NCBI RefSeq assembly: GCF_056712565.1
Contig: NZ_CM160072.1
Strand: one strand, 5' to 3'
DNA: 64,000 bases
The notes beneath the pieces were generated by a model. It was not told where the DNA came from, made no database searches, and saw nothing but the letters and a program-made list of their open reading frames with translations. How positions within the stretch are numbered: the first letter of the stretch is position 1; each line of letters opens with the position of its first letter. A program made the position numbers and the translations under genes. This document shows positions 55,558 through 55,814 of the stretch, piece after piece.

Positions 55558-55561
55558 TCCA

Positions 55562-55612
55562 TGGCTCCAAAAAAAAAGGCAAGGCACGTCAGAAGTAATA
55601 ACTACTTCAAAC
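55562..55612 (-). terminator. leader hairpin with T-run directly upstream of the antiterminator gene
   Basis: on the minus strand aggcaaggcaatgtttgaagtagttattacttctgacgtgccttgcct followed by ttttttttt and ggag-ATG. Confidence 0.45.
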
Positions 55613-55814
55613 ATTGCCTTGCCTGATTTAACAGTTACAAGATGATTAACTAATGCGTATACATTACACGGAATTGTGCTTAATTAAAGAGATGGTCGGC
55701 TTATTTTTCAAGCCGACATTCAAATATCCGACATCAGTCACAAAACCAGCGTCTAATATTCAGGTAAATGTTATCTATTCAACGAAATATAAATTCATTG
55801 AATAAATAAAAACA

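Follow-up and report, generated by a model that had tools for sequence, protein, structure and literature searches.

The analysed window, a stretch of 64,000 nt that was 100% identical to E. coli ATCC 11775, carries recD, argA and amiC followed by five co-oriented genes on the minus strand and then by type VI secretion genes. Three tRNA-Met genes are found at positions 19350-19646, and the locus is the metV genomic island, whose PTS cluster corresponds to c3405-c3410 of CFT073 (PMC2831201). The BglG-type regulator and the permease of this island have been named PafR and PafP (Baum et al. 2014, as cited in PMC8882828 and PMC9981650), and both citing papers class PafR, encoded in the metV island of UPEC, among the BglG/SacY-type antiterminators and report, with reference to that work, that pafR and pafP are needed for full UPEC virulence in the mouse urinary tract. 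Because only one antiterminator-permease pair is present in the island, the gene at 54733-55557 (minus strand) was taken to be pafR, a name that comes from the literature. It encodes a BglG/SacY-family antiterminator of 274 aa with CAT, PRD1 and PRD2 domains, assigned by means of Pfam, NCBIfam and residue alignment, and its start annotated in RefSeq (55557) is in agreement. It is followed, after a gap of only 31 nt, by pafP (53121-54701, minus strand), coding for a MalX-like PTS EIICB permease, and by the rest of the paf operon (50328-53121, minus strand), three genes co-conserved with pafRP at orthologous loci. This cargo comprises a C-S lyase of the PatB/MalY family (51946-53121), a KpsF/GutQ-like protein of 198 aa with the SIS domain only (51347-51943) and a PGDH-like 2-hydroxyacid dehydrogenase (50328-51284), all on the minus strand. 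The GC content of the paf operon ranged from 29 to 46%, against 49-56% in the flanking core genes. The entire amiC-pafR intergenic region covers 55558-55814, and the switch proper described here lies at 55569-55641.

The sequence-only reading had taken the gene downstream of this region for an antiterminator, and the domain content of its product supports that assignment, with Pfam matches to CAT_RBD (residues 1-55, 1e-14) and PRD (residues 73-160, 5e-27). PRD2 received no separate Pfam call but falls within the NCBIfam LicT match, which spans the full length (1-268), and its H205 was aligned in the comparison with BglG and its relatives. PafR matched the NCBIfam LicT, GlcT and BglG models over its full length, the best being LicT with 226 bits, and all scores fell below the equivalog cut-offs (score/cut-off: LicT 226/300, GlcT 178/320, BglG 104/322, LacT 96/500). 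The alignment with BglG and its relatives revealed that K5, N8, N9, N10, G25 and G27 of the CAT domain were invariant. The same held for H98, H157 and H205, which are equivalent to H101 (PRD1), H160 (PRD1) and H208 (PRD2) of BglG, while the fourth PRD histidine is replaced by Arg in the E. coli clade and by Asn in BglG. PafP was identified by its PTS_EIIC (1e-73) and PTS_EIIB (1e-14) domains, its best NCBIfam matches being MalX models, under the cut-off, and a motif of the CxTRLR type (DNCVTRLRL) is visible in its translation. The EIICB gene is kept beside the antiterminator gene in all orthologous loci, and PafP is the presumed sensor that would phosphorylate PafR. At the level of sequence, the genes for the regulator and the sensor carry the domains and key residues needed for a switch of this type.

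On the minus strand of the intergenic region, a terminator hairpin of about 20 bp and 48 nt was found at 55577-55624, with a folding energy of −27.9 kcal/mol, one bulge and one 1x1 loop. Its outer arms pair as AGGCAAGGCA/UGCCUUGCCU, the 5′ arm AGGCAAGGCA running from 55624 to 55615 and the 3′ arm TGCCTTGCCT from 55586 to 55577. The GC-clamped hairpin announced upstream of the antiterminator gene is therefore real and unique in the window, and the two arms named in that early description do pair; the stem is nevertheless longer than described, as the 28 nt between the arms, taken there for a loop, are themselves paired. The hairpin runs into a U-tract of nine T (55569-55577, minus strand), of which the first is shared with the stem and eight are unpaired, followed directly by a Shine-Dalgarno GGAG (55565-55568, minus strand) placed 7 nt before the pafR ATG (55557-55555). 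The reported order of nine T, ggag and ATG was thus right, except that the first T is paired in the stem and that GGAG and the true start are separated by an additional ATG in another frame (ccATGgaATG).

On both strands of the 64 kb window, this was the only run of at least 7 T following a perfect inverted repeat of at least 9 bp, and the U-tract was the sole run of at least nine T; the combination of hairpin and T-tract is more than chance. Folding of the leader RNA, proposed as a check by the sequence-only reading, gave a clear result for the 101-nt leader (MFE −29.4, z = −3.76), with none of the 200 shuffles being equally good. A generic terminator scan did not detect the pafR-leader hairpin, because it allowed loops of only 3-8 nt. 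Attenuation by a leader peptide was rejected, the ATG at 55614 having no SD and being ACG or ATA in orthologues. An in-frame ATG at 55612-55614 (minus strand), inside the terminator hairpin, opens a mechanically listed ORF of 293 aa, the true start being at 55557.

The 5′ arm of the terminator is overlapped by a ribonucleic antiterminator (RAT) core of 24 nt, corresponding to RAT positions 3-26, at 55618-55641 (minus strand). Its sequence, CUUGUAACUGUUAAAUCAGGCAAG, that is CUUGUAACUG-N6-CAGGCAAG, is read as CUUG-UAA-CUG-UUAAAU-CAG-G-CAAG and folds into a top stem and a middle stem, the latter lengthened by C3-G26, with an upper internal loop. The top stem (C10-G21, U11-A20, G12-C19), the upper loop (U7-N8-A9/G22) and the middle stem (U4-A25, U5-A24, G6-C23) are all present, and the seven nucleotides AGGCAAG (55624-55618) are shared with the first 7 nt of the terminator. 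A RAT overlapping the 5′ arm, as had been anticipated, is thus found at 55641-55618, with a lower third that is not canonical. For comparison, the experimentally defined bgl RATs were taken from the K-12 genome record (t1, GGAUUGUUACUGCAUUCGCAGGCAAAACC; t2, GGAUUGUUACCGCACUAAGCGGGCAAAACC), and the paf RAT was identical to both at all non-apical core positions (UUGU.ACUG...CAGGCAA). The core pattern occurred once in the window, with 0.00 occurrences expected from shuffles.

A search against Rfam (4227 families, E up to 10) returned no RAT family and only noise matches; therefore, a locus-independent covariance model, R1, was built. A genome scan with the antiterminator protein yielded 75 loci, and the RAT core was found upstream of 52 of these 75 homologous antiterminator genes. 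The R1 alignment comprised 28 distinct non-orthologous RATs (from Paenibacillus, Clostridium, Enterococcus, Silvania and others) together with bgl t1 and t2, on which the published two-loop RAT structure was imposed. In this 30-RAT alignment, 93% of the cells were paired and the top stem presented C-G/U-A covariation above all shuffles. When R1 was searched with filters off across the whole window (128 kb), the top match fell on the paf RAT (55640-55619, minus strand, 20.5 bits, E ~9e-4). The search for a RAT consensus suggested earlier therefore had a positive outcome, the core being unique in the window and the top match of an independent model. The second-best match, at 35707-35740 (minus strand, 16.9 bits, E 0.013), had the form ACGGAUUGUU-N15-CAAUACCAA, with a canonical lower half and no ACUG/CAGG core, and probably represents a chance match within the T6SS region.

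The match of R1 to the paf RAT was local, covering model positions 6-27 of 33 and excluding positions 1-5 and 28-33, and the upper loop, top stem and middle stem within it were canonical. A canonical lower loop and basal stem were absent from the paf RAT by the covariance model, by RNAalifold and by hand. In the family, the lower internal loop (A3/A26-A27) is closed by G1-C29 and G2-C28, and the GG/CC basal stem was invariant or nearly so in the 30 RATs, the GGA...ACC lower part being invariant in bgl-type RATs; where the family has GG/CC, the paf RAT is flanked by AU-C...G-GCA, and below C3-G26 only U2-R27 pairs according to RNAalifold. Between pafR and pafP there are only 31 nt, and no second RAT was found there, the covariance model giving no other credible match in the window. 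By BLAST, which has low sensitivity under ~20 nt, no second copy of the paf RAT was found elsewhere in E. coli genomes. In each of the 1,688 RefSeq genomes with this leader element, it was single-copy and lacked annotation. About 31% of the complete E. coli genomes carry the paf leader, and one paf copy was on a plasmid record. A full-text literature search for the paf RAT sequence, with the primary PafR paper outside its reach, found no paper, and this RAT-terminator leader may have been described before.

Close PafR orthologues were rare. Proteins with 94-100% identity were found in E. coli and E. whittamii, with 78-80% in two Citrobacter species and Atlantibacter hermannii, and with 42-44% in the Enterobacter sp. 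ENT03 clade, the next relatives being LicT-like proteins of Firmicutes with at most 40% identity. PafR represents a distinct subfamily present in a few Enterobacteriaceae. From these species and from metagenomes, 11 distinct leaders were compared, and all 11 presented the RAT core at −81 to −84, a hairpin of −26 to −28 kcal/mol, at least 7 T and the SD-ATG, with GGAG or GGGG as SD. The RAT pairs were kept in 100% of the leaders and the RAT core was almost invariant, while the flanks were unalignable. Moreover, in the Enterobacter clade a G-C pair in the top stem of the RAT is replaced by A-U, a compensatory change, and the terminator arms changed in concert among orthologues, from GGCAAGGCA/UGCCUUGCC to GCAAGACAA/UUGUCUUGC and GGGCAAUA/UAUUGCCC; RNAalifold predicted 16 consensus pairs for the terminator, 6 of them with compensatory changes. 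Such changes in both the RAT and the terminator argue that both alternative structures are under selection. The layout of a BglG/SacY-type conditional terminator, which the sequence-only reading had recognised, has consequently stood up to comparison, with RAT, terminator and T-tract conserved, compensatory changes included, in four genera. In the Enterobacter clade, the core overlap of RAT and terminator shrinks to 3-4 nt if the RAT is not extended at its base by 2 bp, and a 2-bp GC/GC stem is possible there after a 1x1 A/G mismatch.

These data also bear on the possibility that the hairpin is an unconditional intrinsic terminator, either of amiC or insulating the island edge, and that the RAT-like sequence resembles a RAT without functioning as one, or is a relic. 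The gene amiC is co-oriented with pafR and ends at 55815, 238 nt upstream, the only other candidate for its terminator (55717-55695) combines a poor T-tract with degradation in further alleles of E. coli, and the element in the pafR leader would block read-through from amiC in any case. In Escherichia and Atlantibacter, however, the paf operon lies next to amiC, and in Citrobacter and the Enterobacter clade it is located elsewhere, which gives at least three different genomic contexts, and the element goes with it to sites with different upstream genes. The maintenance of the same layout at such sites argues that the element belongs to the paf operon and not to amiC. In addition, the 24-nt RAT core is nearly invariant, although the antiterminators are only 42% identical and the flanks unalignable, and it combines a compensatory change with the top covariance-model match. 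A merely unconditional terminator is thus very unlikely.

With respect to its surroundings, the paf operon behaves as a separable module, being placed at unrelated sites in Citrobacter (L006, L012 and L014) and in two loci of the Enterobacter clade, the operon of the latter lacking the dehydrogenase gene. In E. coli 10153, the order is amiC-paf-metZWV-mltA, without the T6SS.

The RAT core alone was predicted to fold with −4.7 kcal/mol and the terminator with −27.9 kcal/mol, so that termination would be the default state. When the RAT was enforced in a constrained fold, 7 basal pairs of the terminator were lost and the residual stem ended 7 nt before the U-tract, a distance at which a stem should no longer terminate transcription. 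An alternative antiterminator structure, on which the early interpretation of this leader depended, can therefore be formed, and the RAT and the terminator are mutually exclusive, conserved and covarying structures. Taken together, the pafR leader is very probably a BglG/SacY-type conditional terminator, a RAT-terminator attenuator that controls the paf operon.

The proposed mechanism, in which the binding of PafR, its control through phosphorylation by PafP, the transcription start and the inducer are what we infer, would proceed as follows. The RAT-terminator would act as a single checkpoint for the pafR, pafP, C-S lyase, SIS and dehydrogenase genes, with transcription starting a short distance upstream, near 55654. 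By default, the −28 kcal/mol hairpin would form in the nascent RNA ahead of the U-tract and halt transcription some 10 nt short of the ribosome-binding site. During transport of the PafP substrate, PafR would be unphosphorylated on PRD1, and in this state it would dimerise and bind the weak 24-nt RAT hairpin. The bound RAT would sequester AGGCAAG, the 7 basal nt of the terminator 5′ arm, so that the terminator could not form against the U-tract and RNA polymerase would enter pafR and the downstream operon genes, the outcome being positive autoregulation. With three PRD histidines kept and a PTS EIICB gene next to pafR, expression that is both autoregulated and substrate-induced, as suggested before, would be the natural reading.

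Alternatively, binding of PafR to the RAT could mainly stabilise or process the 5′ end of the mRNA, or modulate elongation, without preventing termination. According to a review (PMC12591593), the 5′ UTR of bgl is reportedly stabilised by BglG, and overlap with a terminator is lacking in many putative RATs. The paf RAT, in contrast, overlaps a strong and conserved terminator with its U-tract, and the two structures exclude each other, a combination that is the specific signature of antitermination and makes this alternative extremely improbable.

In the LicT complex, both RAT internal loops are contacted through residues 5-10, G26, R27, F31 and Q32, positions 27 and 32 being the main specificity determinants and Phe-31 being strictly conserved (PMC3105407). 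The equivalent of G26 in PafR is G25, while R27 is replaced by Pro (Ala in the ENT03 clade), F31 corresponds to Tyr or Phe, and Q32 to Asn. Residues 24-31 of PafR consequently read SGPGVGYN, against MGRGIGFQ in BglG and LicT-like proteins, with Tyr in place of the so-called strictly conserved Phe-31 in the E. coli clade. Between the E. coli and Enterobacter clades, the RAT differs in its lower half, as does PafR in its specificity residues, and these parallel differences in RNA and CAT domain would fit co-evolved specificity. Since LicT contacts both loops and the paf RAT has no lower loop, the CAT domain may bind the paf RAT in a mode different from that of LicT.

The possibility that the switch is functional but is run mainly by BglG or another paralogue, with PafR acting on other targets, was also weighed. 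The upper two-thirds of the paf RAT equal the bgl RAT core, and the natural targets of PafR, which is reportedly able to antiterminate, are said in the abstract of its primary description to be unknown. Cross-talk of family members with non-cognate RATs has also been documented (PMC3105407; PMC1635312). On the other side, the RAT always immediately precedes the pafR orthologues and changes along with them, a clade-specific lower half going with a clade-specific CAT residue 26; it lacks the lower part that does not vary among bgl-type RATs, and it is single-copy and confined to genomes with the paf operon. Control by a paralogue is accordingly unlikely, and PafR is preferred as the regulator of its own leader.

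A more specific proposal, put forward tentatively and less probable than its negation, is that the paf leader is the missing natural target of PafR and that its RAT is a one-loop variant, with matching changes in the CAT domain (Pro/Ala-26, Tyr-30, Asn-31). If this were true, a CAT dimer would be able to work on an asymmetric RAT, PafR would have a channel of its own, shielded from the BglG of the same cell, and the element could have been overlooked by searches with the RAT consensus as well as by promoter screens in vitro. The paf promoter was reportedly silent in vitro, and a strong default terminator with a PafR-type RAT would explain in a simple way the difficulty of detecting expression in vitro when the inducer is missing. 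The paf leader could also serve as a basis for the design of reporters to screen for the inducer in K-12, a strain that does not have the island, and the paf RAT as a defined RNA for probing PafR specificity.

The mechanism of the paf switch is a textbook one and only the truncated lower half of its RAT is unusual, its architecture being closest to E. faecalis nagY-nagE and to bgl t1. As in the paf leader, the RAT of the bgl leader (BglG, t1) overlaps the terminator 5′ arm upstream of the antiterminator's own gene and a PTS permease gene comes next; BglG also shares with PafR the three equivalent PRD histidines and the absence of the fourth, the two proteins being only 25% identical. However, a further RAT-terminator, t2, separates bglG from bglF, where paf has 31 nt and a single checkpoint; the bgl RAT has a GGA/ACC lower loop and a basal stem, which the paf RAT lacks; the overlap of RAT and terminator is larger in paf, with 7 nt at the stem base; and PafP is of the MalX/Glc type (EIICB, no EIIA), unlike the beta-glucoside EIIBCA type of bgl.

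The B. subtilis systems SacY/sacB, SacT/sacPA and LicT/licS-bglPH share with paf the mechanism and the RAT fold. Position 26 of the paf RAT is G, as in sacB (PMC1635312), and PafR has Pro at the position of SacT Pro-26 and Asn at that of SacY Asn-31 (PMC3105407), the PafR of the ENT03 clade having Ala at the former position, as in SacY. They differ in that the lower internal loop (loop 1) is unrecognisable in the paf RAT, and in the gammaproteobacterial host and the operon content of paf. For nagY-nagE, a single RAT-terminator that precedes the antiterminator gene itself, within the 5′ UTR, has been proven (PMC9981650). This locus resembles paf in having one RAT-terminator before the antiterminator gene, followed by a permease gene of the Glc family, and in a RAT that is off consensus, with compensatory changes across orthologues, and a link to virulence; it differs in the RAT sequence, in its longer 5′ UTR of 172 nt and in its inducer, N-acetylglucosamine (PMC9981650). 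The binding of NagY to its RAT was shown experimentally (PMC9981650), whereas that of PafR to its leader is a prediction.

The MalX-like EIICB and the PatB/MalY C-S lyase of the paf operon are a paralogue pair of K-12 malXY. In E. coli malX-malY, a MalX-like EIICB and a C-S lyase of the MalY/PatB family are found in the same order as in paf; there, however, the MalI repressor acts on initiation, and the paf pair would depend instead on a BglG-type antiterminator switch.

Upstream of the RAT, a block conserved in the Escherichia, Citrobacter and Atlantibacter leaders, which have otherwise diverged here, was found at 55653-55669 (minus strand, gtgTAATGTatacgCAT), with the pattern gtgTA(A/G)(T/G)GTatac-CAT. 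It may contain a −10 element, TAATGT (55666-55661), whose T-12, A-11 and T-7 are kept in orthologues as TAAGGT or TAGGGT, and a putative start of the form C-1/A+1 at A 55654; a scan of the pafR leader for consensus σ70 promoters returned no site. Farther upstream, a TGTGA-N6-TCGGA box (TGTGACTGATGTCGGA, 55727-55742, minus strand) resembles a CRP site, its left half being perfect and its centre at about −80 from the putative start. TGTGA lies at −100/−101 from the RAT in E. coli, Atlantibacter and the Citrobacter leader L006, whereas the Enterobacter clade has it at −90, and in two Citrobacter leaders the box is degenerate; it is a possible CRP site.

Two further hairpins were observed around the switch. 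The one at 55421-55436 (minus strand, ATCCGGCTAACCGGAT followed by TTTTTAT), inside pafR, was discarded as a chance feature, because it is disrupted by synonymous substitutions in Citrobacter, E. whittamii and E. coli 10153. The other, at 55695-55717 (minus strand, GTCGGCTT-gaaaaat-AAGCCGAC), lies about 100 nt past the amiC stop codon and was flagged as terminator-like; with its poor T-tract, its degradation in E. coli 10153 and its absence from other genera, it may be a strain-specific amiC terminator.
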